Below are positions 1 through 49,728 of a stretch of DNA of 64,000 nucleotides, one piece after another. This stretch comes from Candidatus Daviesbacteria bacterium. GTDB taxonomy: Bacteria > Patescibacteriota > Microgenomatia > Daviesbacterales > UBA10151. Below the pieces are notes generated by a model. That model saw only the letters and a program-made list of their open reading frames with translations. It made no database searches and had not been told where the DNA came from. The stretch covers positions 33,078 through 97,077 of the forward strand of contig JACOXG010000010.1 in the NCBI GenBank assembly GCA_016176405.1, given 5' to 3'. How positions within the stretch are numbered: position 1 is the first letter of the stretch; every line of letters begins with the position of its first letter. Position numbers and translations under genes: made by a program.

Positions 1-701
1 GTTTTGACTATTCTCAAATGGAACTTAAGATTTTATTTTTTTATCTAAACAATGATGAAGCTAGACAATATTTGAGTGATCCAGACTGGGATGGGCATTC
101 TTGGGTGGCCACTAAAATTTGGGGGATTTCAGATAAAGATCCTAGTTTTCCAGCTTTCCGAAAATTAGCCAAGGCTATAAACTTTGGAATTATATACGGA
201 GAAGGTGATAGACTATTAGCGGCTCAACTAGGGAAGACTGTTAACGAAGCTAAGAAGTTTAGAGAAGAGTATTATGCTAAAATTCCTGGAATAAGAGATC
301 TGATTAATGGGATTCATAAAAAGGTACAGACTAGAGGATATGTTTTCAATTACTTTGGACGGAGATATTATGCAGACCAAGACAGAGAATATGTTTTATT
401 AAATTATTTAATCCAAGGAACGAGCGCTGATTTAATTAAAAATAGAATGGTGGCGATTGATAATGATTTAGAATTAAGGTCTATTGGACTAAAGCTAATC
501 TTACAAATTCATGATGAACTAATTTTTGAATGTCCAAAAGATAAGATTGATTATTCAGTTAAACTAGTTAAACAGATTCTAGAATTTCCAGTTCTAAAGG
601 TTCCATTGGCCTCTAAAGCATATATTCACTATCCTAGTTTGGCTAGTAAATTTGATTATGGATTAAATTGGAGAGATAATGCTGGACTTTCAATCAATTG
701 A
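1..701 (+). CDS. DNA polymerase, family A (PolA-like), C-terminal part; the 5' end lies upstream of the window
   Basis: Frame is open from nt 3. Pol A motif B 'RKLAKAINFGIIYG' and motif C 'LQIHDELIFE' are present. Confidence 0.8.
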   Translation, partial: FDYSQMELKILFFYLNNDEARQYLSDPDWDGHSWVATKIWGISDKDPSFPAFRKLAKAINFGIIYGEGDRLLAAQLGKTVNEAKKFREEYYAKIPGIRDLINGIHKKVQTRGYVFNYFGRRYYADQDREYVLLNYLIQGTSADLIKNRMVAIDNDLELRSIGLKLILQIHDELIFECPKDKIDYSVKLVKQILEFPVLKVPLASKAYIHYPSLASKFDYGLNWRDNAGLSIN

Positions 702-1566
702 TTCTGCCTATACTGAGATATTAAACATCTTAGATAAAGACGGATTTTTAAATAAGAGACGAAATGGAGAAGTAAAAGAATGCTATCATTTAATGATGTG
801 TTTGTCTAATCCAAGACACAGAGTAATTCAAAATTCAAGCAGAAAGATAAGTCTATCAATGTTAGTCGGAGAATTTTTTTGGATTTTGTTTGGTAGAGAT
901 GATTTGGATTTTATATCCTTCTATAATTCAAAAATGATTGAATACTCCGATAATGGAAAGTCTTTATTTGGGGCATATGGAAAGCGTTTGACTAGTCAAT
1001 GGTCTGGAGTTATAGAAAGAATCTTATCTGATAAACTAACTAGACAGGCAGTATTACCGATTATAGATAAAAGTGACTCTACGGCTATGACTAAAGATTT
1101 TCCATGTAATAATCTTCTTCATTTTTGGAGTCAAGACGGCACTAGTCTAAATTTAACCGTGTATATTAGATCTCAGGATATGTTTTTAGGATTTCCGTAT
1201 GATGTTTTTCATTGGACAATGTTTTTAGAGAACATGGCTATGACTTGTAATATGAGACTTGGGAAATACTATCATATAATGCAAAATTGTCATTATTACA
1301 TTAAAGACTATGAAAAAGTTCAGTTGATAAAACAAGCTAATAGTTTTGTTAGTTTACCAATGAACTCTATATTAGAAAGTTGTTTTGATAAGTCTGTAGA
1401 AAATAGACTAATAGAATCAGAATCAAAAACTCGGCAGAACGGGGTTTATGTAAACTTATTCGATGAAAAGTCAATTTGGTCAGACTTTATAAAAATAGTT
1501 CAGCATAGAAAAAGCAATAAAAAAGTTTCTTTATTTGATGGAGCTTTAACTAATGTCTATAGATAG
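679..1566 (+). CDS. ThyA-fold pyrimidine hydroxymethylase, predicted dCMP hydroxymethylase
   Basis: Aligns to thymidylate synthase: 'EFFWILFG' ~ 'ELLWFLQG', and 'FPCNNLLHFW..YIRSQDMFLGFPYDVFHW' ~ 'APCHAFFQFY..YQRSCDVFLGLPFNIASY'. The catalytic Cys is kept, and the base-specificity Asn (E. coli N177) is replaced by Asp, as in T4 gp42. Confidence 0.65.
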   Translation: MLDFQSIDSAYTEILNILDKDGFLNKRRNGEVKECYHLMMCLSNPRHRVIQNSSRKISLSMLVGEFFWILFGRDDLDFISFYNSKMIEYSDNGKSLFGAYGKRLTSQWSGVIERILSDKLTRQAVLPIIDKSDSTAMTKDFPCNNLLHFWSQDGTSLNLTVYIRSQDMFLGFPYDVFHWTMFLENMAMTCNMRLGKYYHIMQNCHYYIKDYEKVQLIKQANSFVSLPMNSILESCFDKSVENRLIESESKTRQNGVYVNLFDEKSIWSDFIKIVQHRKSNKKVSLFDGALTNVYR

Positions 1567-1897
1567 ATTATTCAAAGATCAAGTTAGATTTACAGATAAG
1601 ATCATTAATGATTTAAGTGTGAATGTATCTAAAACTGAGTTAATAAAAGAATATTTGCTGTCTTTGCATGATGAACTATCAGAAATTCTTCATTGCACAA
1701 ATTGGAAATGGCATAGAGAAGATTACGGATCAGACATAGACTATGAGAATTTATATGTGGAATTAATAGACACACAAAAGTTTTTATGGGGGCTGATGCA
1801 TATTTGTGGAATGGACATAAATAAGTTTGAAGAAGTGTATGATAAGAAAAGTAAAATTGTAGAAGAGCGTTTAATGAAATTGAAAGGGAAACAATAG
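1553..1897 (+). CDS. MazG-like / all-alpha NTP pyrophosphohydrolase (possible dCTPase/dUTPase role)
   Basis: Small acidic helical protein with E/D-rich motifs ('LHDELSEIL', 'YVELIDTQ'). It sits between the hydroxymethylase and ThyX. Confidence 0.35.
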   Translation: MSIDRLFKDQVRFTDKIINDLSVNVSKTELIKEYLLSLHDELSEILHCTNWKWHREDYGSDIDYENLYVELIDTQKFLWGLMHICGMDINKFEEVYDKKSKIVEERLMKLKGKQ

Positions 1898-2680
1898 TTG
1901 AGTCAATTAATTCTACCTAAGGTATTCATCATAGGAGAGTCTAAGATTGATTCTGTTGGTTTGCAACAATTATTAAACCATTTGAGTGTTCCTGCATGGA
2001 AATCAGATGCTGACACCGATGTAGAAAAACTTCTGGAAGTCTATGGAAGGGCTTGCTATAAGTCATTTGATGTTATTCTAAATCCTAATTTAACTCGTGT
2101 AAGAAAGCACAATGATGAATACATAAAGAACATTATAGAAAAAGGAGACGGTAGTGTATTAGAACATGGTATGATTAATTTCTTTTTTGCTGATGTGAGT
2201 AGAGTTTTTACCCATGAGTTAGTTAGGCATCGTGTCGGAACAGCCATAAGTCAAGAGAGCTTAAGATTTGTTAGATTGACAGATTTGAACTGGTACGCCC
2301 CAATTTGTATTCAAGAGGATGTTCAGGCTATGGAGATTTTTTCAAGGACACTCAATAGTTTAAGTCAACTTCAAAAAGACTTGGCAGACCTATATAATAT
2401 AGATAACATGTCTTTTGAGAAGAAAAAGGAATTAACTTCAGCTTTTAGACGTCTTGCCCCTGATGGGTTAGCTACAAATATCGGGTGGTCTGCAAATATT
2501 AGAACAATTAGACATGTATTGGAGATGAGGACTAATCCCTCAGCTGAGGAAGAAATCCGATTAGTCTTTTCTCAAGTAGGAAAACTAATGAGGGAAAGAT
2601 ATAAGACGTTGTTTGATGACTATGAGACCGAGATTGTTAATGGAATTGATTGGTACAAAACTAAACATAGAAAAGTATAA
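1898..2680 (+). CDS. thyX: Flavin-dependent thymidylate synthase ThyX
   Basis: ThyX signature 'HELVRHRVGTAISQESLRFV' (RHR..S..S.R). TTG start with an upstream GGGAA RBS-like sequence. Confidence 0.8.
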   Translation: MSQLILPKVFIIGESKIDSVGLQQLLNHLSVPAWKSDADTDVEKLLEVYGRACYKSFDVILNPNLTRVRKHNDEYIKNIIEKGDGSVLEHGMINFFFADVSRVFTHELVRHRVGTAISQESLRFVRLTDLNWYAPICIQEDVQAMEIFSRTLNSLSQLQKDLADLYNIDNMSFEKKKELTSAFRRLAPDGLATNIGWSANIRTIRHVLEMRTNPSAEEEIRLVFSQVGKLMRERYKTLFDDYETEIVNGIDWYKTKHRKV

Positions 2681-2692
2681 GGAGATCTAGAA

Positions 2693-2923
2693 TTGCAAGA
2701 GCCATTAAGTTTTGAAAAAATAATTACTGACTGTAGAGAGAAGCTGACTAAACTTCAAGCCACACTCGAGAGTGTACATCAAATAATATTGACCATATCT
2801 CAGTCTTATTACTGGACTCCTGAATGGCAAGCCAAAGAGAAACGAGCAGACGAGGATGCTCGGGCTGGAAGGTCAAAACAGTTCAAATCTGCCGAAGAAT
2901 TGATCAGGGAGTTGAAGTCATAG
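2693..2923 (+). CDS. hypothetical protein
   Basis: ORF in the co-directional gene array. Confidence 0.3.
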   Translation: MQEPLSFEKIITDCREKLTKLQATLESVHQIILTISQSYYWTPEWQAKEKRADEDARAGRSKQFKSAEELIRELKS

Positions 2924-3083
2924 TCTATGCCCGAGTGGACATTGGGGAGCTCAGATGGCTTCAAGGCTGATTATAAGGCAAAGCCACCGATGTTCAGCCG
3001 AGGAAATATGAATAAGGCTCAAATGATTGATGATGTAGAAGATGCTATAAGCATTCTTATATGTGCTTTATTGAGGAATAACC

Positions 3084-3563
3084 ATGGTAAATAGACCTTC
3101 ATGGGATGATTACTTCTTGGGGATTGCTAAAGTTGTAAGTAGCAGGGCTTCATGCCCTAGGGCAAGCTCAGGATGTGTTTTAGTTCTAGATAAGAGAATT
3201 TTGTCTACAGGTTATAATGGGGCTCCTGTTGGAGAAAAGACGTGTTTAGATATAGGATGTAATGTAAAAGACAGACATTGTGTCAGGGCAGTACATGGCG
3301 AAAGAAATGCCATTTTGTGGGCTGAAAAATATTTTTCAGTAAAGCAACTAAAGGAAGCGACTTTGTACGAATACTATGCAGCTCATAGCGATGAATCAGT
3401 AAAGAATTATTATCCTTCTCAAGATTCTGTAGAGTCATTAGACTTTTTTCCGTGCAAACCATGTAAAGAATTGATGTTAGATAGAAAAATCAAAGAAGTA
3501 ATTTGTCAATATGGGAATGGAATTATAAAAGTCTATAAGAACTATCATATTGGAGAAAAGTAA
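3084..3563 (+). CDS. dCMP (deoxycytidylate) deaminase
   Basis: Zinc-deaminase motifs 'VHGERNAI' (H-x-E) and 'PCKPC'. Confidence 0.7.
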   Translation: MVNRPSWDDYFLGIAKVVSSRASCPRASSGCVLVLDKRILSTGYNGAPVGEKTCLDIGCNVKDRHCVRAVHGERNAILWAEKYFSVKQLKEATLYEYYAAHSDESVKNYYPSQDSVESLDFFPCKPCKELMLDRKIKEVICQYGNGIIKVYKNYHIGEK

Positions 3564-3707
3564 AATGGGAAATATTCAAGATTTATCTATTTATGATCCA
3601 GATATTTGGCTTAAGATGTGTGTGACTTTAAAGATTGAGCTGCCAGACGAGGTTTGGAAAAAGTATATAGATGGCCTATATCCTAGTTTATTTTTTAGGG
3701 GGTAGAA

Positions 3708-3911
3708 ATGTCGCAAGCTTATAAGTGTGATATGTGTAAATGTTTATTTGATTATAGACCAACAAGAGAATTAGAGTTTTCAGAGCATTACGGGCCAGAG
3801 CCTGATGCTAAGAGAGTTCATGCAATAGCTGAAATGAGAGGTGATTATTGTAGAGATTGCTTAGCGGAGATTTTAAGAAATAAGATAAATTATTTGGGAA
3901 GACAAAAATGA
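3708..3911 (+). CDS. hypothetical Cys-rich small protein
   Basis: Contains 'CDMCKC' and 'CRDC' pairs. Confidence 0.3.
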   Translation: MSQAYKCDMCKCLFDYRPTRELEFSEHYGPEPDAKRVHAIAEMRGDYCRDCLAEILRNKINYLGRQK

Positions 3912-3975
3912 AAGAAAAGATTGGTAAAAAGCTAAATTTTGACCCATTATTCGGAGAAGACGGGGAGTAAATAAA

Positions 3976-4188
3976 TTGGCAAAAATTTCTCAGCAACTTT
4001 CTTTTACATTTAGAATCGGGGTAGATCAAAAAGGTCAATTTGCCAAAGTCACAGTACAAATTGATGAAATAGATACAGAATTACCAATAAAGGAGCAATT
4101 AGAGAAAGTTGATGGCGCTCTAGATAAAGTCTGGGCATACATAAAGAAGAAAGTTGATGCCCAGATAGATGAAGTATTAGATAATTGA
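3976..4188 (+). CDS. hypothetical protein
   Basis: ORF only. Confidence 0.3.
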   Translation: MAKISQQLSFTFRIGVDQKGQFAKVTVQIDEIDTELPIKEQLEKVDGALDKVWAYIKKKVDAQIDEVLDN

Positions 4189-5004
4189 ATGAAATCTTAT
4201 TCTTTGTTAAATATAACTGGGAATAAGAGAAGCATAGCAGACCAAATTTTTTCTATTTTACCATTAGATTGTTCAGGATTAACTTATGTTGATCCATTTT
4301 TTGGGTCTGGAGGAGCATATTTCAATGTCTCAAGAAATTTTTTAAGCTATGAGTGTTCTGATTTATTTCCGCTTATTATAAATTTTATATGCCAAGATTT
4401 TTCAAATGAAATTTTAAGCGATTATTATAACAAAGTAACACAAAAATGGGACTTCCATAATAAAGATGCTTATTATAATTTTAGAGAATTTTGGAATGAA
4501 AATAGAGAAAAAGGTCCTAGAATTAAATATATAGGTTTTATGCTTTTAGCGGGAGCATGTATTAATGGTCTATATAGATTTGGCCCAAATGGTTTTAATC
4601 AGTCGTATGGAAATAGGATAATGAAGAAAGAACAACTTTTAGACTATAAGAAACATATTAAGTCTAATAGTAGTTTTTCAATAAAGAATTTTTTAGACAT
4701 AGTCCCGTCTAAAACTTCAGTATTGTATTTAGACCCCCCATATTCTGATACAGGGGCTTTAACTCAAATGTTTGGATTTTGGGAATTGGGTTTGGCGCAA
4801 GATTTAAATCTTATAAGACTAATTAAGTCTCAAGATGAGTGTAACGGTAAGTTTATTCTTAGCACTATTAAAAATTCTTTTTTACATAATGAATTAAAAG
4901 ACACATTTAGAAATATTGACATAAAGAAAACTTATAAAGTAAGTGTAGGAAAGCATTTAGCTTCGTCTCATGAAGAAATTATAGTTACAAATCTAGGAGA
5001 TTAA
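4189..5004 (+). CDS. DNA N6-adenine methyltransferase (Dam-like)
   Basis: SAM motif 'VDPFFGSGGAYFN' and catalytic 'LYLDPPYSDTG' (DPPY). Confidence 0.8.
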   Translation: MKSYSLLNITGNKRSIADQIFSILPLDCSGLTYVDPFFGSGGAYFNVSRNFLSYECSDLFPLIINFICQDFSNEILSDYYNKVTQKWDFHNKDAYYNFREFWNENREKGPRIKYIGFMLLAGACINGLYRFGPNGFNQSYGNRIMKKEQLLDYKKHIKSNSSFSIKNFLDIVPSKTSVLYLDPPYSDTGALTQMFGFWELGLAQDLNLIRLIKSQDECNGKFILSTIKNSFLHNELKDTFRNIDIKKTYKVSVGKHLASSHEEIIVTNLGD

Positions 5005-5006
5005 TC

Positions 5007-5942
5007 TTGTCGAAGAAGAATGATTCAATAGAAGAATTGCTAAAAAACGGCTTAATGAAATATGGCTCCGATAAGAGTTTGTTATTCGATAGGGTAGCAT
5101 TTGGGATAGAGTCGTTAGACAAGCTAGTAGGCGGCGGGATACCTAAAAAGAGAATGTCATTGTTTACTGGCCCCCCAAGTTCAGGGAAATCATATTTAGC
5201 ATCACAAGCTGTAGTTAGTGAACAAAAGAATGGTGGAGTAGCAGCTTGGATAGATACGGAGTTATCTTGGGATCCAGTTTGGATGGAAAGATGTGGGGTT
5301 GATATTGATAAAATTTATTTAGTTCAGCCGACAACAGGAGAAGAAGCATTTGATACGATTAAAGTGTTAATGAATGAAAAAGTAGGAGTTATTGTTCTAG
5401 ACAGTATTGCAGGAATAGTCCCGACAGCGGTGCAAGAAGAAGATTTTTCATACAATCCTGTAGCATGGCAGGCTAGGTTTGTTAATCAATCTATTCCTAA
5501 ACTATTTCCTTCATTAAAGAACGGGTCAGCCTTAATCGTAATAAATCAAGTCCGTTCTAGTCTTGGGCCCGTGTCATTAGATAATATGCCAGGAGGAGTG
5601 GCACAGCAATTCTTTGCACATTTCATATTGCAGATTAGGCGAGAAGGCTGGATAGAAGATGCTGATAAAAACAAGATGGGGTTTGACATAAAAATAAGTT
5701 GTAAGAAAAGTAAGGTTGGAGGACAGCCGTATCAATCTTGCACAGTCCCATTTAGACTAGAAGGTGGGATTGATCTTTTGGAAACTGTCATCAGAGAAGC
5801 ATTAGACAAAGGTATAATAGAACAAGCTAGGGCTTGGTTTAAATGGGGAGATCTTAAAGTGATTGGGATGAAAGGAGTTAAAGAATATTTGATAAATAAT
5901 CCAGATAAAAAATTAGAGTTGGAAAGTTTAATCAAAGAATAG
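5007..5942 (+). CDS. RecA-family recombinase / ATPase (UvsX/Sak4/RadA-like)
   Basis: Walker A 'GPPSSGKS' and Walker B-like 'IVLDSIAGIV'. Length about 311 aa. Confidence 0.65.
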   Translation: MSKKNDSIEELLKNGLMKYGSDKSLLFDRVAFGIESLDKLVGGGIPKKRMSLFTGPPSSGKSYLASQAVVSEQKNGGVAAWIDTELSWDPVWMERCGVDIDKIYLVQPTTGEEAFDTIKVLMNEKVGVIVLDSIAGIVPTAVQEEDFSYNPVAWQARFVNQSIPKLFPSLKNGSALIVINQVRSSLGPVSLDNMPGGVAQQFFAHFILQIRREGWIEDADKNKMGFDIKISCKKSKVGGQPYQSCTVPFRLEGGIDLLETVIREALDKGIIEQARAWFKWGDLKVIGMKGVKEYLINNPDKKLELESLIKE

Positions 5943-6130
5943 AATTAAATATGACTTGTCAATCTTGTAGTGGAAAGCTTACAGCGGTTAAGTCACTGCT
6001 GGAATCTAATGATTTTACTGCAGTAGTTTTCTATAAAAGAATTGATAATAATAATAAGTATCCAATATATTGGTGGTATGATTGCTATTTGTGGGGCAGT
6101 TATTTGGACAATAATTGGGAGTTTATATAA

Positions 6131-6457
6131 ATGAATGGAAAAGGCTGGGTATTAAAATCTGCTGTCATGGAAGCTACTAAGTCATTACCTTTAAGAGGAT
6201 GGATAGAAAGTCAGCCATATAAGAATTCAATTCCATGTATAGTCCAGCCAGGAAAGAAAACAACTAGATTAATTAAAGAAAATGAAATGGCAGTAGAGAT
6301 TATGCCTACTTGGGGGAAGTGTGTGTTAGTTGTGCCAAGAGAAGCTGTAGATATAGAGGTTCATTTAAAATCAGTGTCTATTCCATATAATCTATATTTA
6401 GAAGTGTCAAGATATGTTGGATTGGGGAAGTGTATAGGTGACAAAAGAGGTGGATGA
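6131..6457 (+). CDS. hypothetical protein
   Basis: ORF only. Confidence 0.3.
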   Translation: MNGKGWVLKSAVMEATKSLPLRGWIESQPYKNSIPCIVQPGKKTTRLIKENEMAVEIMPTWGKCVLVVPREAVDIEVHLKSVSIPYNLYLEVSRYVGLGKCIGDKRGG

Positions 6458-6541
6458 ATAGATGATAGAGATTGTAATAATAACGTGTCTGGGTTTTACG
6501 GTAGGCGTGCTTTTGAGTAAGTTAGCTAGCACTAAATATAA

Positions 6542-6844
6542 ATGATAGCTAAAGACCATACCAAGCAAGAAAATCTTATTGCTGATGTATTATCAAATCT
6601 TGGAATTAGATATGTGCAACAATACAATATAGGTCAATATACCGTAGATTTATTTTTGCCAGAATTAAATTATGTGATTGAGGCAGACGGAGTGTACGGT
6701 CATTTTAAGAAGGGAGATATAAAAAGAGACTTTATATTAGTATCAGACTTTGGAATAGACAAGGTAATTCATACTACTGAGAATACATATGCGGATATTC
6801 TTAAAAGGATAAAAGAAGAATGCCTGGAATTAGAAGACTCTTAG
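6542..6844 (+). CDS. DUF559/Vsr-like endonuclease-domain protein (free-standing homing-endonuclease-like)
   Basis: 'YTVDLFLPELNYVIEADGVYGHF' matches the DUF559 core pattern (D.F.P....IE.DG..H). Confidence 0.45.
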   Translation: MIAKDHTKQENLIADVLSNLGIRYVQQYNIGQYTVDLFLPELNYVIEADGVYGHFKKGDIKRDFILVSDFGIDKVIHTTENTYADILKRIKEECLELEDS

Positions 6845-7548
6845 GAGAAATATCTTCCAAACTAGTAAAAGAAGCAACCCCAAAAGATTCGTGGCTGATA
6901 AAAAAATTAGATGATTCTTTAGCAGCAATTCCTAATAGGCAATCTAGTGGGGGGGTATTTTATCCTTCTTCATTGGGGAGTAAGTGCGATAGATTTCTCT
7001 ATTATCATTATAGAGGTCTAATTCCACAAGAGCCAATTAGTGCAAAATTAAGAAGAATTTTTGATCATGGTAATGTTACTCAGGATAGGTATCAAAAATA
7101 TTTTGAAAAATTACGAGTTTTAATTTCTTGTGAGTTACAATTAAAATATTCTAATCCGCCAATTTCAGGTAGAGCAGATTTTATTCTTCAATATGCTGAT
7201 GAAGAAGGAAAGAAAGACCCAATAACAGGTATTATTAGATACACATTTGAAAATTATATTTTGGAGTTTAAGACAATAAATGATACTGGCTTTAAGAAAT
7301 TAACAAAAGCAACCCCAGACCACGAAGCACAGTTACAATGCTATTTGAACATAGCAAATTTAACTAAGGGCGGGGTACTATATGAGAATAAAGATAATCA
7401 GGATTTGAAGCTATTTTCAACAGAACGGAATGTTGAATGGTGGAATACTATACTGGATAGGTGCAGAAAAGTAATGAATTTGCAAATTCCTCCAGAAATT
7501 GTTGAGCCACATGATAAGTATTGTAAATGCTTGTTAGTGAAAGGATAA
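6820..7548 (+). CDS. PD-(D/E)xK nuclease, Cas4/RecB-nuclease-like
   Basis: 'GRADFI' (D), 'YILEFKT' (ExK), 'AQLQCYL' (QxxxY), plus N- and C-terminal Cys residues. Confidence 0.5.
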   Translation: MPGIRRLLGEISSKLVKEATPKDSWLIKKLDDSLAAIPNRQSSGGVFYPSSLGSKCDRFLYYHYRGLIPQEPISAKLRRIFDHGNVTQDRYQKYFEKLRVLISCELQLKYSNPPISGRADFILQYADEEGKKDPITGIIRYTFENYILEFKTINDTGFKKLTKATPDHEAQLQCYLNIANLTKGGVLYENKDNQDLKLFSTERNVEWWNTILDRCRKVMNLQIPPEIVEPHDKYCKCLLVKG

Positions 7549-7549
7549 G

Positions 7550-7837
7550 ATGTCTAAAAAGTACACTATTGAATATTCTGTTGATATAGAGACATTGACA
7601 GAACGCGTAGTTATATTTTGTCGGGATGGTGCAGATATTTATGTTGCTTCACCGATGAGTTTTACTAAGATAGATGAGGCAGAGAGAATCATTCCTACAT
7701 TAGAGGCTCGACTTGGGGAATTAGAAGGGCTTAAAAGAAAATTAACATCTAATTCAGAAGCATTAGAAGCAGAGTTAAAAGCCACTAAGTATCATCTTGA
7801 AGATATACGAAAATTGTTGGATTTGAAAAATGGGTAA
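7550..7837 (+). CDS. hypothetical protein
   Basis: ORF only. Confidence 0.3.
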   Translation: MSKKYTIEYSVDIETLTERVVIFCRDGADIYVASPMSFTKIDEAERIIPTLEARLGELEGLKRKLTSNSEALEAELKATKYHLEDIRKLLDLKNG

Positions 7838-8483
7838 TGATAAACTTTTACCTAACCAAGTCTATGTAGTAGACAAAAATACAAAGGCGAAATGGATTTA
7901 TGATATAGATCCAGAAGACTTTGACTTGATTGCTACTCGTGGCGTGAGAGATGAGTATGGAAATATAACCTTAGAAACTCCATATTTAGCTGCATTGAAA
8001 TATTGGACAGTAGAGAAAGCAATGAATACAGCTGACTTGTATGTAAAGGATTTAAATGTTCCGTCTATTGATATAAAGATAAAGGAAAAGCCTCCAGTAG
8101 ATTTATCTCAATTGCACAATAGCACTAATGACCAATTAGCAGAATATCTAGCATTTTTTGGGGGTTATCGAGCATATTTGGAGACCCAGTTATCTTATGT
8201 AGAGGCAAAGAAAGGTATATTAGAATCTTCATTTGAAGAGGGGCTTTCTAAGATGTTTTATACTCTTGGGGATAAGTATAAAGATAGCAAAAAGCCATTG
8301 AAAGAAGCAATGCATGGAGAAAGTATGCAAATGAATCCATCATTGAAAAAGATAAAGCAAACTCTAATAGAGACGGAGGCTATATATAATAGAATACGTG
8401 GACTTAGAGATTCATACAAGGTGGCATGGGATACAGTTAGTAGAGTAATAGCATTAAGACTGGGGTCTAAGGAAGGAGTATAA
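7830..8483 (+). CDS. hypothetical protein
   Basis: ORF only. Confidence 0.3.
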   Translation: MGNDKLLPNQVYVVDKNTKAKWIYDIDPEDFDLIATRGVRDEYGNITLETPYLAALKYWTVEKAMNTADLYVKDLNVPSIDIKIKEKPPVDLSQLHNSTNDQLAEYLAFFGGYRAYLETQLSYVEAKKGILESSFEEGLSKMFYTLGDKYKDSKKPLKEAMHGESMQMNPSLKKIKQTLIETEAIYNRIRGLRDSYKVAWDTVSRVIALRLGSKEGV

Positions 8484-8755
8484 GTATTTATATGACTGAG
8501 GATGGGAGCGGCAAGAATTATAGACTTTATGAAGATCTTTTAATTGCAATTGATAGGTATCTTCCAGAAGATAGTAATATTTTACCGGCAGATATTGTTG
8601 ATATAATTTTGCCTACCATTAAGAAGTCTATTGAAATTCTAGGATATTTTACATCTTGATCATGTGAGGATAGAGGAGGAGAAAAAATGAATGTTAGTTC
8701 CTCTTTCAAAAACTCTAATCGAGAAATTTGAAGATTATACCAATGGGTAGTTTTT

Positions 8756-9013
8756 ATGAATAAGCATAGGTCTTTTCTCAAAGATAGTAAATTAGTAAAT
8801 AACTGGTACTGTCCAAAATGTACAGTCTATGTGGATGTAAGACGGTATAAAGAATCAGCAAGAAATAACATGATTCTTTATGAAAGAAATGACTGTGAAA
8901 AATGCGGTATGACGCTGTATGAACTTATGCCATCATATTATTGTGTTAAATGCGGTAAGCTAGAAGTTCTAAATTCTGATTTTCTGTGCAAAGGATGTGT
9001 GACAAATGGATAA
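8756..9013 (+). CDS. zinc-ribbon protein (multiple CxxC)
   Basis: CPKC..CEKC..CVKC..CKGC. Confidence 0.35.
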   Translation: MNKHRSFLKDSKLVNNWYCPKCTVYVDVRRYKESARNNMILYERNDCEKCGMTLYELMPSYYCVKCGKLEVLNSDFLCKGCVTNG

Positions 9014-9132
9014 AGAAAATTTGTTTGAAGTTGAGGATTTAATTTCATACATTGAGCTTGCCTGTGGGGCATTAAGATATGCTCAAATGCAATCAAATCA
9101 AGCTTTATGGGAAAGTATTTTGGATGACATAA

Positions 9133-9660
9133 TTGGTTCAGCTAACCAATTGCAAGAGGCTGGACTTGAAGAAAGAGAGTAATTATTACATAGGCGTAGA
9201 CTGTAGCTCCAAAAGCATTCATTGCGTTAGTCTAAATGATAGTGCGAAGATAGCTTTCATAGCCTCATTTAAAACTGATAAAGAGGGTTTAGATGAGCGC
9301 ATGTATATGTTATATGATGATCTAATAAAGTTCGTTGAAGATAATTTATACATATTTAAGCATAAGGTTATTGTAGTAGTAGAAAATTCCATTTATATTC
9401 AGAATGTGAGAGCAACAATTGGCATATCTCAAACGGTAGCAGCATCAAAGCTTGTGTTTAACAAATTTGGGGCTGCTGTTTTTGGGATTGACAATAAGTC
9501 CTGGAAAAAGGACGTATTAGCTTCTGGTAAGGCAGAGAAAAGCTTGATAAAAAAATTTGCTCTTACAAAATGGCCAGATGATTTAAATGAAACAATGGAT
9601 CAAGACTTTTTCGATGCAGCCTGTATAGCATATTACGGTTTTAGTAAGTTTGGTAAATAG
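9133..9660 (+). CDS. RuvC-like Holliday junction resolvase
   Basis: 'YYIGVDCSSKS' (Asp 1), 'VVVENSIYIQN' (Glu) and 'DAACIAYYG' (Asp) resemble the RuvC catalytic residues. The true start may be the TTG near 9163. Confidence 0.55.
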   Translation: MVQLTNCKRLDLKKESNYYIGVDCSSKSIHCVSLNDSAKIAFIASFKTDKEGLDERMYMLYDDLIKFVEDNLYIFKHKVIVVVENSIYIQNVRATIGISQTVAASKLVFNKFGAAVFGIDNKSWKKDVLASGKAEKSLIKKFALTKWPDDLNETMDQDFFDAACIAYYGFSKFGK

Positions 9661-9663
9661 GCG

Positions 9664-10815
9664 ATGACTAGAATATTTATAACTTCAAAAGAATCAACAC
9701 AGGCCCCGACTTTAGAGTCAGAAAATATTAAGCCAGTGATGATTGATATTTTTTCTCATAGACTGACGTCGTATAATGCATTTAATATGCAAAGAGCTCT
9801 TGCTATTGAAGATTTAGTGCGTAAATATAATAAATCTATTCATACAACAGAAGTTGTTTTGAGTCCTACTAATGAGATTAAATTTAATGATATTAATATA
9901 GTGAAACATGGGGCGGCAATTTATGCAGAGGATTTGCAGGGGTCGTCTATGATAAATTGCTTAATTTTTAAGAACCTAGAAGTTATTTCTATTAGTTTTG
10001 ATATATATAGATTAACTAGCGCCGTTCGCTCAATAAGCATTACACATGTTGGAAAAAGAGATGAATGTCTTAAGTCTATTTTAGAATATTTTAATAGTTT
10101 AGGGTTTTCTACTGATTCTGGAAAAGATAATAAGACCACTGTCATATATGGATTTCCTGGGGAAAGAGGTCCCAGAACAGTGGCCAGGGATTTTATTAAA
10201 TTACCATTTAAAGATATTAGAAAAAACTATTCAATGGAGACTCAAAGTAAGATTGGTGTCTTGATTGCTCAATTAGCTGATGCCGCTGTAAAAAGTGGGA
10301 TTGTTATTTTCAATGGGCCAGTTGGCACTGGGAAAAGCTATTTAATCAGATCATTATTGTCAGATTTATCAAGTCGTCAAAGCATTGTTTTGTCTCCCCC
10401 CGAATATTTTCTAAATGATATTGGAATGATGCAATCAGTAATAGCTGAGTACCCCAAGTCATTTGTAATTTTGGAAGACTTGGGAGAAATGTTAGCTATT
10501 GATGGCAGCGCTAGAAGTGCTAGTATTACATCAAATTTATTGAACGCCACCTCAGGTCTCCTATCTTTACTGTCAGATACAATTTTTATTCTTACTTTCA
10601 ATCATGACATAGGAAAGCTTAATCCTGCATTTTTGAGACCTGGGAGGTGTTTGGGAAAAATTGAAATTGGAAATTTGTCACTTGATTATGCTCAAACTTT
10701 GACTAAAGTAAAGTTAGTTAGACAATCTTATTCTTTAGCTGAAATATATGAAATTAATCGTACAGGAAAGGATATTGAAAATTTTTCTGATAAGGCTTTA
10801 GGACTTAAAAGATGA
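9664..10815 (+). CDS. P-loop/AAA-like ATPase
   Basis: Walker A 'NGPVGTGKSY' and Walker B 'FVILEDLGE'. Confidence 0.5.
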   Translation: MTRIFITSKESTQAPTLESENIKPVMIDIFSHRLTSYNAFNMQRALAIEDLVRKYNKSIHTTEVVLSPTNEIKFNDINIVKHGAAIYAEDLQGSSMINCLIFKNLEVISISFDIYRLTSAVRSISITHVGKRDECLKSILEYFNSLGFSTDSGKDNKTTVIYGFPGERGPRTVARDFIKLPFKDIRKNYSMETQSKIGVLIAQLADAAVKSGIVIFNGPVGTGKSYLIRSLLSDLSSRQSIVLSPPEYFLNDIGMMQSVIAEYPKSFVILEDLGEMLAIDGSARSASITSNLLNATSGLLSLLSDTIFILTFNHDIGKLNPAFLRPGRCLGKIEIGNLSLDYAQTLTKVKLVRQSYSLAEIYEINRTGKDIENFSDKALGLKR

Positions 10816-11243
10816 AAACATGGTATTTATCATATAATAATAAAGACGAGTTTGAAATTAATATTGGGACAAAAAGTTTAATCTTGACATTTTTATCTGA
10901 TATAATAGATTTTATAAATCATAATGTTTTAAAGTATGTCCCGATGGTGCCATTTCCAATTATTCATTGGGGAAATTGGATTTGTGAAAACAAAAGGATA
11001 CATTTTCACATGTCATATAATTGGTATGGATGGAGCATTGGAGATATATTGTGTATGACTTTAGAAGGCTATTTGTTTAATAAGTCATTGGACAATGAGA
11101 GACAGATACTTAGTTTTAGTGTATCAGAGGAAGACTTAGCTAAATTTTATGGGAGAGATGCTGATTTTATTCAGGAGTGCAAAGAAAATGATAGAAACTA
11201 TGTCCCCAACAAGTTTGGAAGTGCAAAAGAAAATAACAAATAG
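10812..11243 (+). CDS. hypothetical protein
   Basis: ORF only. Confidence 0.3.
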   Translation: MKTWYLSYNNKDEFEINIGTKSLILTFLSDIIDFINHNVLKYVPMVPFPIIHWGNWICENKRIHFHMSYNWYGWSIGDILCMTLEGYLFNKSLDNERQILSFSVSEEDLAKFYGRDADFIQECKENDRNYVPNKFGSAKENNK

Positions 11244-11414
11244 TTGTGTAGTGCCTGAGTGCACCAGCAGACAAAGCAGGTCGAACAATAAAGTAGGATT
11301 ATGTTTTAGGCACGCAGAATGGTTATACTTTTTGCTATGGGCTTTACCTAGAATTACATTAGAAAAACAAGCAGAATCAGGTTTGTGGACTCCTGAGAAG
11401 AAAGGATAGGAAAT

Positions 11415-12902
11415 ATGTATCAAGTCATCGGGAAAAATTATATAAATGGTCAATGGGTGGAGCTCAAGAATCATTTTTATTCATTAAATCCGTCTAATAC
11501 AAATGAAGATATCGGGATTTTTCCTCAGTCTGTATATTCTGAAGTAGATTTAGCTGTTGAGGCTGCAAAAGATGCCTTTAGATCTTGGAAAAGTTTGTCT
11601 AGAATTAATAGGGCGGAGTATTTTAATGCATTTGTAAAAAATGTGGAGAAAAATTTTGATGAACTTGTGCATTTAATGTGTAGGGAAAGCGGAAAACAAA
11701 TAAATGAATGCAAAGCTGATGTAATTGAAGGGATTCATATGGCTCAATATAACTTTGGTAGAGCAAGGATGCCATATGGAGAAGTAATGGCATCAGAAAT
11801 TGCTAGTAAGGATGCATTTATGTTGCGAAAACCAAAAGGGGTAATCGCAGCAATAACTCCTTGGAATTTTCCGTTTGCTATTCCTTTATGGTTAATTATT
11901 CCATCTTTGCTAGAAGGAAACACTGTTGTATTCAAACCGTCAGAAGACACTCCTGCTGTAGGAGAATTTTTAGTTAAAATGTTTGATGAAGTTAGTTTAC
12001 CCCCAGGAGTATTAAATCTAGTTCAGGGAGATGGGGGGACTGGATGGGATTTAGTTACAAATACTGATATTAAGGTAGTGTTATTTACTGGCTCCTATGC
12101 TGTTGGGTCTAAAATTAGGAAAGAATGTGCTGGTTCTATAGACAAAATGGCAGTGTGCGAGATGGGCGGGAAAAACGCTATTATTGTGTTGGAAGATGCA
12201 GATTTGGATTTAGCAGTAAATGCATGCATTTTAAGTGCCTTCAAAACTGCTGGTCAAAGATGTGTATCTGCTTCCAGATTGATAGTTCATAGGTCTATTT
12301 TGAAAGAATTTGAGGATAAATTTGTAAATAAGGCTAAAAATTTAATAGTTGGGGATCCTCTTGATTCAAGCACCTTTATGGGGCCAGTAATAAATCTAGA
12401 GGCTATTAATAAAATTTTGTCTTATAATGATATGGCTCGGAAAGAGGGTGTTGAAATATTATTAAATGGTTCCAGACTTGTAGAAGGGAAATATTGGGAT
12501 GGGTATTTCATGTCTCCATTTGTATATGAAACGGAAAATAGATTTTCTAAAGTCTTGAAGGAAGAGGTGTTTGGGCCTCATGTGGCTATTATCCCATTTG
12601 ATACATTAGAAGATGCAGTCAGTCTATATAATAGTACTGATTATGGTTTTGCATTAGCTGTAATATCTAATGATTATCGTAAGATTAAATATTTACAGCA
12701 GAATTGTGATTTTGGAGTGGGATATGTAAATCTTCCCAGCATAGGCGCAGAAGTTCATTTGCCATTTGGTGGTACAAAGAAGAGTGGTTCTGGGATGCCT
12801 TCAGCCTCTGCTTTAATTGATGCTGTAACACACAGAGTAGCCTGGACTGTTAACTATGCAGATGAAATTCAATTAGCCCAAGGATTAAATGCAAAGGTAT
12901 GA
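11415..12902 (+). CDS. NAD(P)-dependent aldehyde dehydrogenase
   Basis: ALDH Glu motif 'EMGGKNAII', Cys motif 'GQRCVSASR', NAD-binding 'FTGS..VG'. 495 aa. Confidence 0.85.
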   Translation: MYQVIGKNYINGQWVELKNHFYSLNPSNTNEDIGIFPQSVYSEVDLAVEAAKDAFRSWKSLSRINRAEYFNAFVKNVEKNFDELVHLMCRESGKQINECKADVIEGIHMAQYNFGRARMPYGEVMASEIASKDAFMLRKPKGVIAAITPWNFPFAIPLWLIIPSLLEGNTVVFKPSEDTPAVGEFLVKMFDEVSLPPGVLNLVQGDGGTGWDLVTNTDIKVVLFTGSYAVGSKIRKECAGSIDKMAVCEMGGKNAIIVLEDADLDLAVNACILSAFKTAGQRCVSASRLIVHRSILKEFEDKFVNKAKNLIVGDPLDSSTFMGPVINLEAINKILSYNDMARKEGVEILLNGSRLVEGKYWDGYFMSPFVYETENRFSKVLKEEVFGPHVAIIPFDTLEDAVSLYNSTDYGFALAVISNDYRKIKYLQQNCDFGVGYVNLPSIGAEVHLPFGGTKKSGSGMPSASALIDAVTHRVAWTVNYADEIQLAQGLNAKV

Positions 12903-12945
12903 AATGGATTTGTAGTAGTAGATTTATAGAACCGGAAGTATTTTA

Positions 12946-13182
12946 ATGATATGGCAAGATATTGTAATAATGATTGGCCAAGTCTTATTTTCAATTTCGT
13001 TAATTCCAATTTTGCGGGCTAAAACTAAGCCTCCAAAGTTTACGTGTTTTTTAACAGCCAGTATTTTAGGCAGTTTCTTTATAACATTTGGGACATTGTC
13101 TTTATGGATGTCAATGTTTTCATGTCTCCTAAATGGAACTTTATGGTGTTGGATAGGATTACAGAAAGGCATAAGAATATGA
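12946..13182 (+). CDS. small hydrophobic membrane protein
   Basis: Two to three predicted TM helices. Overlaps the next gene by ATGA. Confidence 0.35.
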   Translation: MIWQDIVIMIGQVLFSISLIPILRAKTKPPKFTCFLTASILGSFFITFGTLSLWMSMFSCLLNGTLWCWIGLQKGIRI

Positions 13183-13736
13183 ATATAGCTATAGATATTG
13201 AAGGGACTGTTGCTGATGTGCACGAAGCATTTTTACAATGGTTTAATACTAAGTATGACACTAATTTTACGATTAAAGATATTGACAATTGGAATATAGC
13301 AAAGACAAAATTAGGAATAACAACATCAGAGTTTATTGAATCTCTTAGAAAGCTATGGAAACAACAATGCACTATGACTTTGACAGATAGTAATATCCCA
13401 AAGATAATTGATAGGTTAATAGATTCAGGGCATAGAATTTATTTTGTGACTGCTCATTATGAGGTCGCGCCACAAATTATTGATTGGATTAATAAGAATA
13501 GACTAAAACATTCGGGCTTCATGGCTGTAAAGAATACAGAAGTAAAGAAGATTCTTTCATTTGATTTATTTATTGATGATTGCCCATTATTAGTGGAATC
13601 TTTAGGGCACCGACTTTTTTTATATAATAGACCATATAATACAAATACAAAAGCTATTAATCGTTTTACTGATTTTTCAGAATTAACTAATCGAATAAAC
13701 ATGTGGCCAAGGAGGGGAGAGAATGAAAGCTTGTAA
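13179..13736 (+). CDS. HAD-family 5'(3')-deoxyribonucleotidase (NT5C-like)
   Basis: 'IAIDIEGTVADV' (DxDxT/V..D motif I) and 'LFIDDCP'. Start taken at the internal ATG at 13179. Confidence 0.55.
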   Translation: MNIAIDIEGTVADVHEAFLQWFNTKYDTNFTIKDIDNWNIAKTKLGITTSEFIESLRKLWKQQCTMTLTDSNIPKIIDRLIDSGHRIYFVTAHYEVAPQIIDWINKNRLKHSGFMAVKNTEVKKILSFDLFIDDCPLLVESLGHRLFLYNRPYNTNTKAINRFTDFSELTNRINMWPRRGENESL

Positions 13737-14118
13737 GACTGAGATAAATATTAGCTGTGAGTGCTCAGGAGATAGTTGTTCATTGAAGGCATTGGAATCC
13801 TATCGAAAATTCATTTGGTGTGATGCTGTAGATTGTGTTTGGAATATGAATCCCTTACCCTTTAAGAAATATGTTCAAGTTAATGATAATTTTAAGTCCT
13901 TGCCTAATGATAATGTCAAGGGATTATGCACCAGGCAAGAAATTAGATTAACAGCTAGAGAAGTTGAGACATTGCGTGTTAAACATAAATTAGCAGGTTG
14001 TGCAGTTCGAAGTGATAAAAGAATAACAGGTCATATGGATTGGGGAAAGTTTCCTGAAGGGGGGAACATCCCAGATCCAGTTGATCCTGCTATTGGTGGT
14101 TCTGAGTTATTAGGATAG
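13723..14118 (+). CDS. hypothetical protein
   Basis: ORF only. Confidence 0.3.
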   Translation: MKACKTEINISCECSGDSCSLKALESYRKFIWCDAVDCVWNMNPLPFKKYVQVNDNFKSLPNDNVKGLCTRQEIRLTAREVETLRVKHKLAGCAVRSDKRITGHMDWGKFPEGGNIPDPVDPAIGGSELLG

Positions 14119-14119
14119 T

Positions 14120-14632
14120 ATGTCTGACGATTACACAGAAGATCAAAGAAAATTCGCTTTAGATTTATACCTAGACGGCATGACAGCCGTGAAAATTGCT
14201 CGTAGGTTTTCTAGTGAGTATAATTCTTTGATTAGGGCATCAACAATTACTCAATGGATCAATAAATATGAATGGAAGAATATTAGAGCAGAATTGCGTA
14301 ATCAAGCTATTGCAGAAATAATGCAAAGAAACAAAAGCTCTCTTATTAAGACTTCTGAAGAGCATGCTAAGACATACCGAAAATTGTGGAAAAAGGGGGA
14401 GGAAGCCCTAGAAAGAGAAAAAAGTCCTGCTAAAATTCTTGACCCAAGCGATGCTATAAAAGCAATAGATGCGGGAATACAGGGAGAGAGGAAAGTAATT
14501 TTAGGCATTGTTAATATGAAATTTGTTCAGGATGTCTTAGGGGTAATTGTAGAAGAAGTTAACGATCAAACTGTATTAAACAAAATAGCTATTAGGCTGA
14601 AAAAACTAGCTTCAGAAATGATGGAAGGTTAA
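14120..14632 (+). CDS. putative terminase small subunit (HTH protein)
   Basis: Immediately upstream of the large terminase. N-terminal HTH-like 'LDGMTAVKIARRF'. Confidence 0.4.
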   Translation: MSDDYTEDQRKFALDLYLDGMTAVKIARRFSSEYNSLIRASTITQWINKYEWKNIRAELRNQAIAEIMQRNKSSLIKTSEEHAKTYRKLWKKGEEALEREKSPAKILDPSDAIKAIDAGIQGERKVILGIVNMKFVQDVLGVIVEEVNDQTVLNKIAIRLKKLASEMMEG

Positions 14633-14637
14633 AGAAA

Positions 14638-14853
14638 GTGAGAGTCACTGATTTGGATTTAGAACAATTTATTGCACAGTGCAAGTCTTGTAAGGATACT
14701 TTTGTAATTGATTATGTTAAGAGATATAAATATTTTGAAAGTCAATTAGCTTTTACAGTAAGAGATGGTCAATTTAGACATAGATGTGGTGGATTGATTA
14801 GGATTTTTACAAGTGTCCCAATCTCTTTTGACATACAAACAAGCACTAACTAA
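14638..14853 (+). CDS. hypothetical protein
   Basis: ORF only. Confidence 0.25.
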   Translation: MRVTDLDLEQFIAQCKSCKDTFVIDYVKRYKYFESQLAFTVRDGQFRHRCGGLIRIFTSVPISFDIQTSTN

Positions 14854-46186: not shown

Positions 46187-46260
46187 TGTGGATTAGTATA
46201 ATGGTAGTACATCAGGTTTTGACCCTGAGAATTTTGGTTCGAATCCAGAATCCACAGCCA
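46187..46260 (+). tRNA. tRNA-Gln (anticodon UUG), CCA encoded
   Basis: Hand-folded cloverleaf: 7-bp acceptor stem TGTGGAT/ATCCACA with U1-A72, discriminator G73, U8, D-loop GG, anticodon loop 'TTTTGAC' (UUG), T-arm TTTGG-TTCGAAT-CCAGA, 3' CCA. 74 nt. Confidence 0.8.
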
Positions 46261-49726: not shown

Positions 49727-49728
49727 CA

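Follow-up and report, generated by a model that had tools for sequence, protein, structure and literature searches.

Does the phage whose genome includes this stretch of DNA replace its cytosine with a modified base, and if so, with which enzymes? The window analyzed here (the whole stretch of 64,000 nucleotides, positions 33,078 to 97,077 of contig JACOXG010000010.1) belongs to a tailed-phage genome, as shown by the portal protein, terminase-like protein, ribonucleotide reductase (RNR), family-A DNA polymerase (PolA), and RecA/UvsX that are all encoded in it. A first-pass annotation had described five plus-strand genes between positions 679 and 5004, namely, a ThyA-fold enzyme carrying the Asn-to-Asp switch from deoxyuridylate (dUMP) to deoxycytidylate (dCMP) specificity, a MazG-like nucleoside triphosphate pyrophosphatase (NTPase), the thymidylate synthase ThyX, a dCMP deaminase, and a Dam methylase, and had proposed from them that the genomic DNA contains 5-hydroxymethylcytosine (5hmC) or a derivative. 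All five genes lie where they had been placed, the switch residue is Asp175 of the open reading frame (ORF) at 679 to 1566, and the proposal found support in all computational tests available. Judging from sequence comparison, structural modeling, and gene linkage, we consider it probable that the phage DNA carries 5hmC, possibly in glycosylated form, in place of cytosine, and that the base is made by a module like that of phage T4.

The argument begins with the ThyA-fold enzyme, whose gene and diagnostic codons are as follows.

679 to 1566, plus strand: ThyA-fold enzyme, predicted dCMP 5-hydroxymethylase (5hmdCMP synthase) of the clade of MilA, the ViI hydroxymethylase, and phage G gp319; Pfam PF00303 (Thymidylat_synt), 7e-20
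1096 to 1110, plus strand: codons of Asp140 (position of Escherichia coli Leu143), Phe, Pro, the catalytic Cys143 (E. coli Cys146), and Asn144 (E. coli His147), from alignments including a 173-sequence MAFFT alignment
1168 to 1203, plus strand: codons of Arg164-Ser165-Gln-Asp167 and, further on, Asp175; Ser165 is the deoxyribose residue, Asp167 corresponds to E. coli Asp169, and Asp175 replaces Asn177

Window positions 1042 to 1221 translate to 'RQAVLPIIDKSDSTAMTKDFPCNNLLHFWSQDGTSLNLTVYIRSQDMFLGFPYDVFHWTM', in which the motifs quoted in the first-pass annotation are present, and the codon of Asp175 occupies positions 1201 to 1203. The placement of this residue is no artifact of alignment. HMMER pairs 'RSQDMFLGFPYDVFHW' with 'RSADIFLGVPFNIASY' of Lactobacillus casei thymidylate synthase (TS) and with 'RANDAFRGAVSDVFSF' of MilA, placing Asp175 opposite L. 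casei Asn229 and the MilA aspartate, and the best-scoring TS chain is the N229D mutant 1njc. In the MAFFT alignment, Asp175 shares one column with E. coli Asn177 (ThyA reference sequence identical to PDB 1aob), T4 gp42 Asp179, and the MilA aspartate; the ViI-type dUMP hydroxymethylase has Asn in this column. The family set of 166 proteins combines 23 word-index homologs with the 143 best additional representatives from an exhaustive HMMER search. The family comprises at least 166 clusters at 50% identity with the same signature, and the aspartate at the specificity position is invariant in the set (166/166).

The catalytic framework is complete as well, Cys143, Glu65, Tyr100, Arg164, His205, and Tyr207 (E. 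coli Cys146, Glu58, Tyr94, Arg166, His207, and Tyr209) being invariant in the family. Relative to E. coli ThyA, the diagnostic changes are N177D (Asp175), L143D (Asp140), and H147N (Asn144), while D169 (Asp167), S167 (Ser165), and R126 (Arg122) are kept. The combination D143/D169/D177/S167/R126 occurs in 164 of the 166 family members; Ser165 is found in 165 and Arg122 in all 166, and Asp167 is invariant, with no D169N substitution present. Asp175, Asp140, Asp167, Ser165, and Arg122 all fall into the same alignment columns as the corresponding residues of T4 gp42. Residues 177 and 147 are those that best separate TS homologs on cytosine-modified viral contigs from those on unmodified ones, a residue other than His at 147 being associated with modified contigs (MetaGPA; PMC8670742). 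Enzymes that form hydroxymethyl products (T4-like enzymes and MilA) carry Asp or Glu in place of Leu143, methyl-forming enzymes are hydrophobic at this position, and a change of Asp169 to Asn marks the newly discovered flavin-dependent 5-hydroxy-dCMP (5hodCMP) synthases (Lee et al., NAR 2026; PMC13326640). In MilA, Ala176 and Lys133' favor ribo-CMP, whereas enzymes acting on deoxynucleoside monophosphates (dNMPs) have Ser and Arg (PMC5175136). Going by Asp140, the product would carry a hydroxymethyl group and not a methyl group, and Ser165 and Arg122 point to a deoxyribonucleotide substrate. Taken together, the residues read as the complete signature of a deoxycytidylate hydroxymethylase, and they fail to match those of TS, dUMP hydroxymethylases, 5hodCMP synthases, and ribo-specific enzymes.

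The departures from TS extend beyond Asp175, Asp140, and Asn144 in place of Asn177, Leu143, and His147: Trp80 is absent, Trp83 is replaced by Tyr, and the C-terminal lid has given way to a MilA-type helical domain. The NCBIfam TS equivalog models score only 26 to 65 bits against cutoffs of 108 to 427 (for example, 65 versus 327). These scores and the separate ThyX gene bear out the earlier view that ORF 679-1566 is unlikely to be a second TS. In our assessment, it very probably encodes a cytosine-specific C5-modifying enzyme rather than a TS, and we have good, if lesser, confidence that its product would be the hydroxymethyl derivative.

The structural comparison leads to the same clade. An AlphaFold (AF2) model of the protein (predicted local distance difference test [pLDDT] score, 95.2) was searched with Foldseek, and the top PDB matches were all MilA chains (template modeling [TM] score, 0.86; root mean square deviation, ~2.2 Å; 295 columns, which take in the C-terminal helical domain). 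TM scores were 0.63 to 0.67 for TS structures and 0.61 for the 5hodCMP mono-oxygenase 9iqc. Searching the PDB with the family profile gave 6.5e-59 for MilA versus 1e-34 for the best TS. In pairwise comparisons, phage G gp319 scored 149 bits, the ViI-type dUMP hydroxymethylase 100, and MilA about 95, with Asp, Asn, and Asp, respectively, at the specificity position, and BLASTP gave 68 bits for E. coli ThyA and 26 bits for T4 gp42. A direct kinship with gp42 is ruled out by the latter score and by the absence of gp42 from the best 60 PDB matches. The enzyme would work like gp42 yet sits in a different clade, whose characterized members are hydroxymethylases and in which base choice follows residue 177.

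MilA (and BcmA; PDB 5jnh/5b6d) is the best profile and structural match and shares Asp at 177 (MilA Asp186) and at 143 as well as the ThyA core with a C-terminal five-helix domain; it differs in having the ribo-CMP residues Ala176 and Lys133 and in belonging to a nucleoside-antibiotic cluster, whereas the present enzyme has Ser165 and Arg122 and lies in a phage replication module. Among cultured phages, the closest protein is phage G gp319 (31% identity, 3e-38), which shares the Asp signature. The ViI-type enzyme of Kuttervirus shares Asp at 143 and a PF08761 NTPase encoded a few genes away, but it has Asn at the specificity position, uses dUMP, and serves a thymidine hypermodification pathway.

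The genes around the ThyA-fold gene in the window are as follows.

1 to 701, plus strand: family-A DNA polymerase, 3' part of a gene that begins upstream of the window; Pfam DNA_pol_A, 1e-41
1553 to 1897, plus strand: all-alpha NTP pyrophosphatase of 114 amino acids, probably of the dimeric dUTPase/dCTPase family, candidate for depletion of dCTP and/or dUTP; phrog_173, 5e-6
1898 to 2680, plus strand: flavin-dependent thymidylate synthase ThyX; Pfam Thy1 (PF02511), 1e-33
3084 to 3563, plus strand: zinc-dependent dCMP deaminase; Pfam match to dCMP_cyt_deam_1 (PF00383), 3e-14; phrog_174, 7e-31
4189 to 5004, plus strand: Dam-family N6-adenine DNA methyltransferase; Pfam PF02086 (MethyltransfD12), 1e-24

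The 93-kb Logan contig SRR12113430_915 (L001 and L005 below) is a circular permutation of the 109,932-bp NCBI contig, which indicates a circle of about 109.8 kb (109,833 bp, with an assembly overlap of 99 bp). The complete PolA gene (L001, 8059 to 10023) encodes 654 amino acids including an exonuclease domain. A 23-nucleotide overlap joins the end of this gene to the start of the TS homolog, one of 14 nucleotides joins the TS homolog stop to the NTPase start, and the NTPase ORF abuts thyX at position 1898; a GGAG ribosome-binding site precedes the ATG of ORF 679-1566, and the first two of these ORFs have such sites. These overlaps and junctions make the PolA gene, the ThyA-fold ORF, the NTPase gene, and thyX one translationally coupled block.

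The MazG-like label of the first-pass annotation can be refined. The gene does encode an NTP pyrophosphatase, and the protein is better placed in the PF08761 dimeric dUTPase/dCTPase family, with its dCTP specificity unproven. The orthologs match PF08761 (best E value, 4e-6 for P0025 and L009 and ~2e-8 for L012 and L013), and a profile of three orthologs detected trypanosomatid dimeric dUTPases in the PDB at 0.006. The dCTPase/dUTPase of T4, gp56, is itself a PF08761 member, to which hhalign relates the NTPase weakly (E value, 0.0025). The ExxE...ExxD metal site (E41, E44, E70, and D73) is invariant in the aligned orthologs and matches the residues of dUTPases and gp56. ThyX just passes TIGR02170 (88.7 bits versus a cutoff of 87.9), matches ThyX structures in the PDB at 1e-25, and keeps the RHR...SQxSxRF motif ('RHRVGTAISQESLRF' versus 'RHRH-FSFSQLSQRF', with a one-residue insertion); it would supply dTMP independently of the ThyA-fold enzyme. 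The deaminase has the HxE and PCxxC motifs and an insertion of ~35 amino acids, and its closest PDB relative is the Streptococcus mutans dCMP deaminase (2e-21). Dam had been listed alongside the cytosine enzymes. The gene does encode an N6-adenine methylase, with a DPPY motif ('LDPPYSDT') and a TIGR00571 score of 111.6 bits, just under the cutoff of 114.85; adenine modification, however, is chemically independent of the cytosine pathway.

Neither a glycosyltransferase nor a dNMP kinase was found in the window, as the first-pass annotation had said of the former. Both are encoded elsewhere in the genome, directly upstream of PolA.

L001, 5953 to 7152 (window-equivalent -3369 to -2170): GT-B glycosyltransferase, 399 amino acids; weak but consistent GT-B Pfam matches; named glycosyltransferase by NCBI
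L001, 7140 to 8075 (window-equivalent -2182 to -1247): fusion of a thymidylate kinase (TMPK)-like P-loop kinase and a uracil-DNA glycosylase (UDG)-superfamily domain, 311 amino acids; GxDKTGKS and DRF motifs, GNNxPGL and HPS motifs

The glycosyltransferase has 33 metagenomic homologs at 40 to 55% identity, and all three homolog contexts examined are phage replication cassettes. Its AF2 model (pLDDT score, 92.6) matches the retaining GT4 enzymes MshA, BshA, and PglA; among viral models, it matches phage glycosyltransferases, with that of SP-15 at rank 14 and the S-TIM5 'DNA alpha-GT' only at rank 43. It combines a GT4-like fold with conserved genomic linkage to a pyrimidine-hydroxymethylase gene, as would be expected of a phage DNA (5hmC) glycosyltransferase. 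A phmmer search of PDB sequences returned nothing useful. In the fusion protein, the N terminus matches phrog_761 'thymidylate kinase' (9e-8) and SPbeta YorR (5.5e-5), and the C terminus matches Pfam UDG (4e-6). The architecture is conserved, at ~50% identity in L012, L013, and L014 and at 60% over a C-terminal fragment in L023. Phage G gp315, annotated only as 'thymidylate kinase', aligns with it over the full length at 24% identity. The UDG-fold domain may excise uracil or 5-hydroxymethyluracil (5-hmU) or may serve in base recognition. We also considered whether this domain is the aGPT-Pplase of thymidine hypermodification; those enzymes are helix-hairpin-helix glycosylase-like proteins (PMC8989533), and the Pfam UDG match and the GNNxPGL and HPS motifs rule this out.

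The association of these genes recurs in other phage contigs. L012 and L013 have the order NTPase (PF08761), glycosyltransferase (46 to 54% identity), kinase-UDG fusion (~50%), DNA polymerase, and ThyA-fold gene, and L014 has it in part; L012 and L013 are unrelated phages with a family-B polymerase, and their ThyA-fold proteins belong to a different clade that again has Asp at 177, 143, and 169. The Asp-type TS homolog is complete in L012 and L013 and partial, at a contig end, in L014. The closest relative, L009 (TS homolog at 49% identity), encodes a kinase, an RGP-type glycosyltransferase, a UDG, and a second glycosyltransferase-like protein ahead of PolA, TS homolog, NTPase, and deaminase. 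In the more distant L010 and L011, the TS homolog occurs with a phrog_761 kinase and a PRA-PH NTPase; L011 has a deaminase as well. In phage G, the alpha-glucosyltransferase gp313, the kinase-UDG homolog gp315, the dCMP deaminase gp317, and gp319 are clustered, with the difference that the glycosyltransferase families are without detectable similarity; a literature search on phage G DNA composition found nothing relevant among the papers covered. Three unrelated types of glycosyltransferase are therefore found with the same kinase and an Asp-type hydroxymethylase, as one would expect were 5hmC in DNA their shared acceptor. In metaviromes, Asp177 TS homologs, all-alpha NTPases, dCMP deaminases, and DNA_pol_A co-localize on cytosine-modified contigs (MetaGPA; Yang et al. 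2021; PMC8670742; 2024 deaminase preprint), and of the deaminases on modified contigs, 70% have a TS homolog within 3 kb, versus 6% of those on unmodified contigs (MetaGPA). The present module shares all four of these components; the MetaGPA contigs differ in having PRA-PH-type NTPases and, in some, carbamoyltransferases, where we find a dUTPase_2-type NTPase and tailoring by a glycosyltransferase.

The second glycosyltransferase-like protein of L009 (6967 to 8037; 356 amino acids) has a faint glycosyltransferase-like Pfam match. Its homologs (up to 3e-44) adjoin Asp-type TS homologs in L020, L021, and L022, which come from a Clostridiaceae and a Kineosporiaceae metagenome-assembled genome (MAG) and from the isolate Allorhizocola rhizosphaerae. 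The hydroxymethylase family has in this protein a second conserved partner.

We propose the following pathway, which builds on what was observed of fold, residues, synteny, and co-occurrence and predicts the product chemistry, the specificities of the NTPase and the kinase, the glycosyltransferase's acceptor, and the makeup of virion DNA. The ThyA-fold enzyme would hydroxymethylate some of the dCMP pool, and some would be deaminated to dUMP and methylated by ThyX, so that the deaminase and ThyX would divert dCMP to dTMP, the role of cd and td in T4. Catalytic Cys143 would attack C6 of dCMP while Asp175 reads the N3/N4 face of cytosine, and the exocyclic methylene intermediate would be hydrated rather than reduced to give 5hm-dCMP; hydration is expected over reduction since the water-excluding Leu143 has given way to Asp140 and neither Trp80 nor the C-terminal lid of TS is present at the site. 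The phage kinase would then phosphorylate 5hm-dCMP, PolA would incorporate 5hm-dCTP, and the PF08761 NTPase probably lowers dCTP and/or dUTP. The glycosyltransferase encoded 2.2 to 3.4 kb upstream of window base 1 would most likely glycosylate the 5hmC hydroxyl after replication; as to whether the final base is indeed glycosylated, we lean toward it, though only by a little.

Compared with T4, the likeness is in the plan. In both, the ThyA-fold enzyme has Asp at 177 and is acidic at 143, and it is accompanied by an NTPase (of the PF08761 family in T4 and probably here), a phage dNMP kinase, a deaminase, a further enzyme for dTMP synthesis, a glycosyltransferase of the GT-B type, and a nearby Dam methylase (in T4, dam adjoins gene 56). 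The parts differ: gp42 is only remotely related, and the present enzyme has a MilA-type C-terminal helical domain; dTMP comes from ThyX and not from a td of ThyA type; the kinase carries a fused UDG-fold domain; the glycosyltransferase is GT4-like and not an alpha- or beta-glucosyltransferase of the T4 kind; and the polymerase is of family A. What we see is the T4 strategy built from non-orthologous or distantly related parts, in an arrangement known statistically from metaviromes; it is not a new principle.

Several observations weigh against a T4-like 5hmC pathway. The enzyme's relation to gp42 is only remote, and the rule by which position 143 separates hydroxymethyl from methyl products is correlative and does not amount to a proven determinant. 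The window's NTPase has no Pfam match of its own at an E value of 1 or below. The glycosyltransferase looks like a generic GT4 enzyme, with no specific similarity to the DNA glucosyltransferases of T4 or phage G: no T4 glycosyltransferase is among its top 50 PDB matches, and it showed no significant similarity to the phage G alpha-glucosyltransferase gp313 or to the second glycosyltransferase-like protein of L009. The 71-kb contig L023 from Hainich groundwater (ENA ERZ1292623) is syntenic with window positions 1 to 18000 at 45 to 67% amino acid identity over a run of genes that begins with kinase-UDG, continues with PolA, NTPase, RecA, and terminase, and ends with RNR, and at its corresponding sites it has no ThyA-fold gene, ThyX, deaminase, or Dam; it also lacks, at the corresponding site, the block of 9.6 to 13.7 kb that encodes an AAA protein, an aldehyde dehydrogenase, and NT5C. 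With these absences in a conserved backbone, the TS homolog, ThyX, deaminase, and Dam genes behave as indels, as does the block of 9.6 to 13.7 kb. The NTPase ortholog of L023 (50% identity) follows PolA, so that its pairing with the hydroxymethylase is not obligatory, and the NTPase and the kinase-UDG fusion may primarily be general genes for dUTP/uracil avoidance and dTMP phosphorylation that are co-opted for hydroxymethylcytosine where the hydroxymethylase is present. Finally, restriction-type palindromes are still avoided, though full hypermodification might make avoidance unnecessary. Avoidance in the window is moderate for GATC, CCGG, GGCC, CATG, and GTAC: GATC is the most underrepresented 4-bp palindrome (103 observed versus 172 expected; observed/expected ratio, 0.60; z, -5.3) despite the Dam-family methylase, the ratio for CCGG is 0.34, and GATATC occurs 3 times where 18 are expected. 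Such restriction-site statistics neither favor nor rule out hypermodification.

A bolder reading keeps 5hmC as the modified base and concerns the route to it. The cassette of GT4-like glycosyltransferase, kinase-UDG fusion, and PF08761 NTPase with an enzyme of the MilA/ViI clade might be a distinct route to a new glycosyl-5hmC in a phage that infects members of the candidate phyla radiation (CPR), with the UDG-fold domain tethered to the kinase so as to police uracil or 5-hmU at the replication fork. The CPR host in this explanation comes from the deposition of the contig in a Daviesbacteria MAG. We consider it unlikely.

A dCMP 5-methyltransferase, as in Xanthomonas phage XP12, would yield 5-methyl-dCMP and DNA with 5-methylcytosine (5mC), and the deaminase could then make dT from 5-methyl-dC nucleotides. 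We hold this to be improbable, even though Asn177Asp alone turns TS into a dCMP methylase (cited in PMC8670742), a preference for 5mC nucleotides can occur in phage dCMP-deaminase homologs encoded beside Asp-type TS homologs, and the module of L009, the closest relative, contains no ThyX. Set against these points are the aspartate at the Leu143 position (acidic in hydroxymethylases and hydrophobic in methyl-forming enzymes), the hydroxymethylase activity of the nearest characterized relatives (MilA and ViI-type), the absence of Trp80 and of the TS C-terminal lid, the conserved glycosyltransferase of the cassette, which needs a hydroxyl acceptor, and the ThyX of this genome.

The indel-like behavior of the four genes and the presence in L023 of NTPase and kinase-UDG genes at a locus without the TS homolog also suit a nucleotide-salvage or uracil-avoidance module in which the ThyA-fold gene is a recent passenger with little effect on DNA or, as with the CMP enzyme MilA of secondary metabolism, which is the best structural match, acts on ribonucleotides. 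We give this little credence. No catalytic residue is lost, and the gene sits between PolA and NTPase in translational coupling; Ser165 and Arg122 are of the deoxyribose type, whereas MilA has Ala and Lys; and the cassette is conserved with an Asp-type TS homolog in several phage lineages.

Hydroxymethylation of dUMP, as in phages ViI, SPO1, and phiW-14, would lead to 5-hmU or to thymidine hypermodification with the deaminase feeding dUMP, and is very unlikely. ViI-type hydroxymethylases are among the closest cultured-phage matches (31.5% identity), those phages have a PF08761 NTPase nearby, and a dCMP deaminase is adjacent, but the ViI-type enzyme has Asn where all 166 family members have Asp, the ThyX gene is a sign of normal dTMP synthesis, and no pair of 5-hmU DNA kinase and aGPT-Pplase turned up in the proteins scanned. 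The least likely explanation, a flavin-dependent 5-hydroxy-dCMP synthase (RB69 gp48, DLP3 gp80, HY126) whose product would be converted by the glycosyltransferase to ether-linked glycosyl-5-hydroxycytosine, draws on the fact that those synthases are also N177D/L143E ThyA-fold proteins paired with a dNMP kinase and glycosyltransferases (PMC13326640) and founders on the absence of D169N, with Asp167 invariant, and on the TM score of 0.61 for 9iqc versus 0.86 for MilA.

If 5hmC is indeed made by this module, a groundwater phage of ~110 kb replaces cytosine with 5hmC, probably in glycosylated form, and its DNA would resist many restriction and CRISPR nucleases and would distort metagenomic methods that depend on cytosine chemistry. 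The T4 paradigm would then reach a large family whose only annotation is 'thymidylate synthase', although modules of this kind have already been predicted by the MetaGPA studies and the T-even literature; most likely this is a known anti-restriction strategy in a new lineage. The MilA-like predicted dCMP hydroxymethylase, the GT4-like putative DNA glycosyltransferase, and the kinase-UDG fusion are candidates for enzymology and biotechnology.

The window proteins are 100% identical to proteins labeled 'hypothetical' in the 109,932-bp NCBI contig, a phage genome that was deposited as part of a Candidatus Daviesbacteria (CPR) MAG. When the first 12 kb were compared at the nucleotide level with 50,697 phage records, no match was obtained, so there is no close cultured relative among them. 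A scan of genome contigs found eight relatives, in assemblies of Clostridia, Halanaerobiales, and actinomycetes, and none in CPR genomes, so that the contig scan gives no host information. The window is AT rich (GC content, ~34%), with nearly all long ORFs on the plus strand. On that strand, positions 1 to 64000 have 21.9% G versus 13.3% C (GC skew of about +0.25) and more A than T, a very strong and uniform asymmetry.

Two more nucleotide-metabolism genes lie further downstream.

13044 to 13736, plus strand: NT5C-type 5'-deoxy(pyrimidine)nucleotidase, a peripheral nucleotide-pool enzyme; Pfam PF06941, 4e-9
16398 to 18671, plus strand: ribonucleotide reductase (large-chain barrel and TSCPD domain), supplying dNDP/dNTP; Pfam PF02867 (4e-118), PF00317, and PF12637

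The nucleotidase, which could shape pyrimidine dNMP pools, lies together with an aldehyde dehydrogenase (495 amino acids, 11415 to 12902) between the replication and terminase-like genes.

The remainder of the window holds several genes outside the cytosine module. A 682-amino-acid fusion (22344 to 24392) joins an N-terminal DUF192 to a C-terminal toxin domain of the ADP-ribosyltransferase exoenzyme type. It is preceded by a NUMOD3/Vsr-like homing-endonuclease ORF (21347 to 22375), for which a lookup of the contigs encoding it returned no record, and is followed by a NUDIX protein (24394 to 25353) whose N terminus consists of 200 amino acids without recognized identity. A 727-amino-acid protein (31434 to 33617) contains a eukaryotic-type topoisomerase IB domain (PF01028), unusual in a phage. 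The 313-amino-acid product of positions 41663 to 42604 consists of the catalytic domain only of a Glu/Gln-tRNA synthetase (PF00749), about the size of GluQ-RS, and the single tRNA-Gln(UUG) gene (46187 to 46260) lies 3.6 kb downstream of it. At 48155 to 50343, a chaperonin of the Cpn60/GroEL type (523 amino acids) is followed by an RNA ligase (PF09414), with RlaP and RtcB further on (L005, 3156 to 6403; window positions of about 60787 to 64034); the RNA ligase, RlaP, and RtcB together with the chaperonin suggest a phage-encoded RNA/tRNA repair set. Lastly, a 629-amino-acid protein (38514 to 40403) with a weak Peptidase_S78_2 match and faint intein-splicing matches adjoins a ClpP-like protease (about 37781 to 38386) and may be an intein-containing head-maturation protein.

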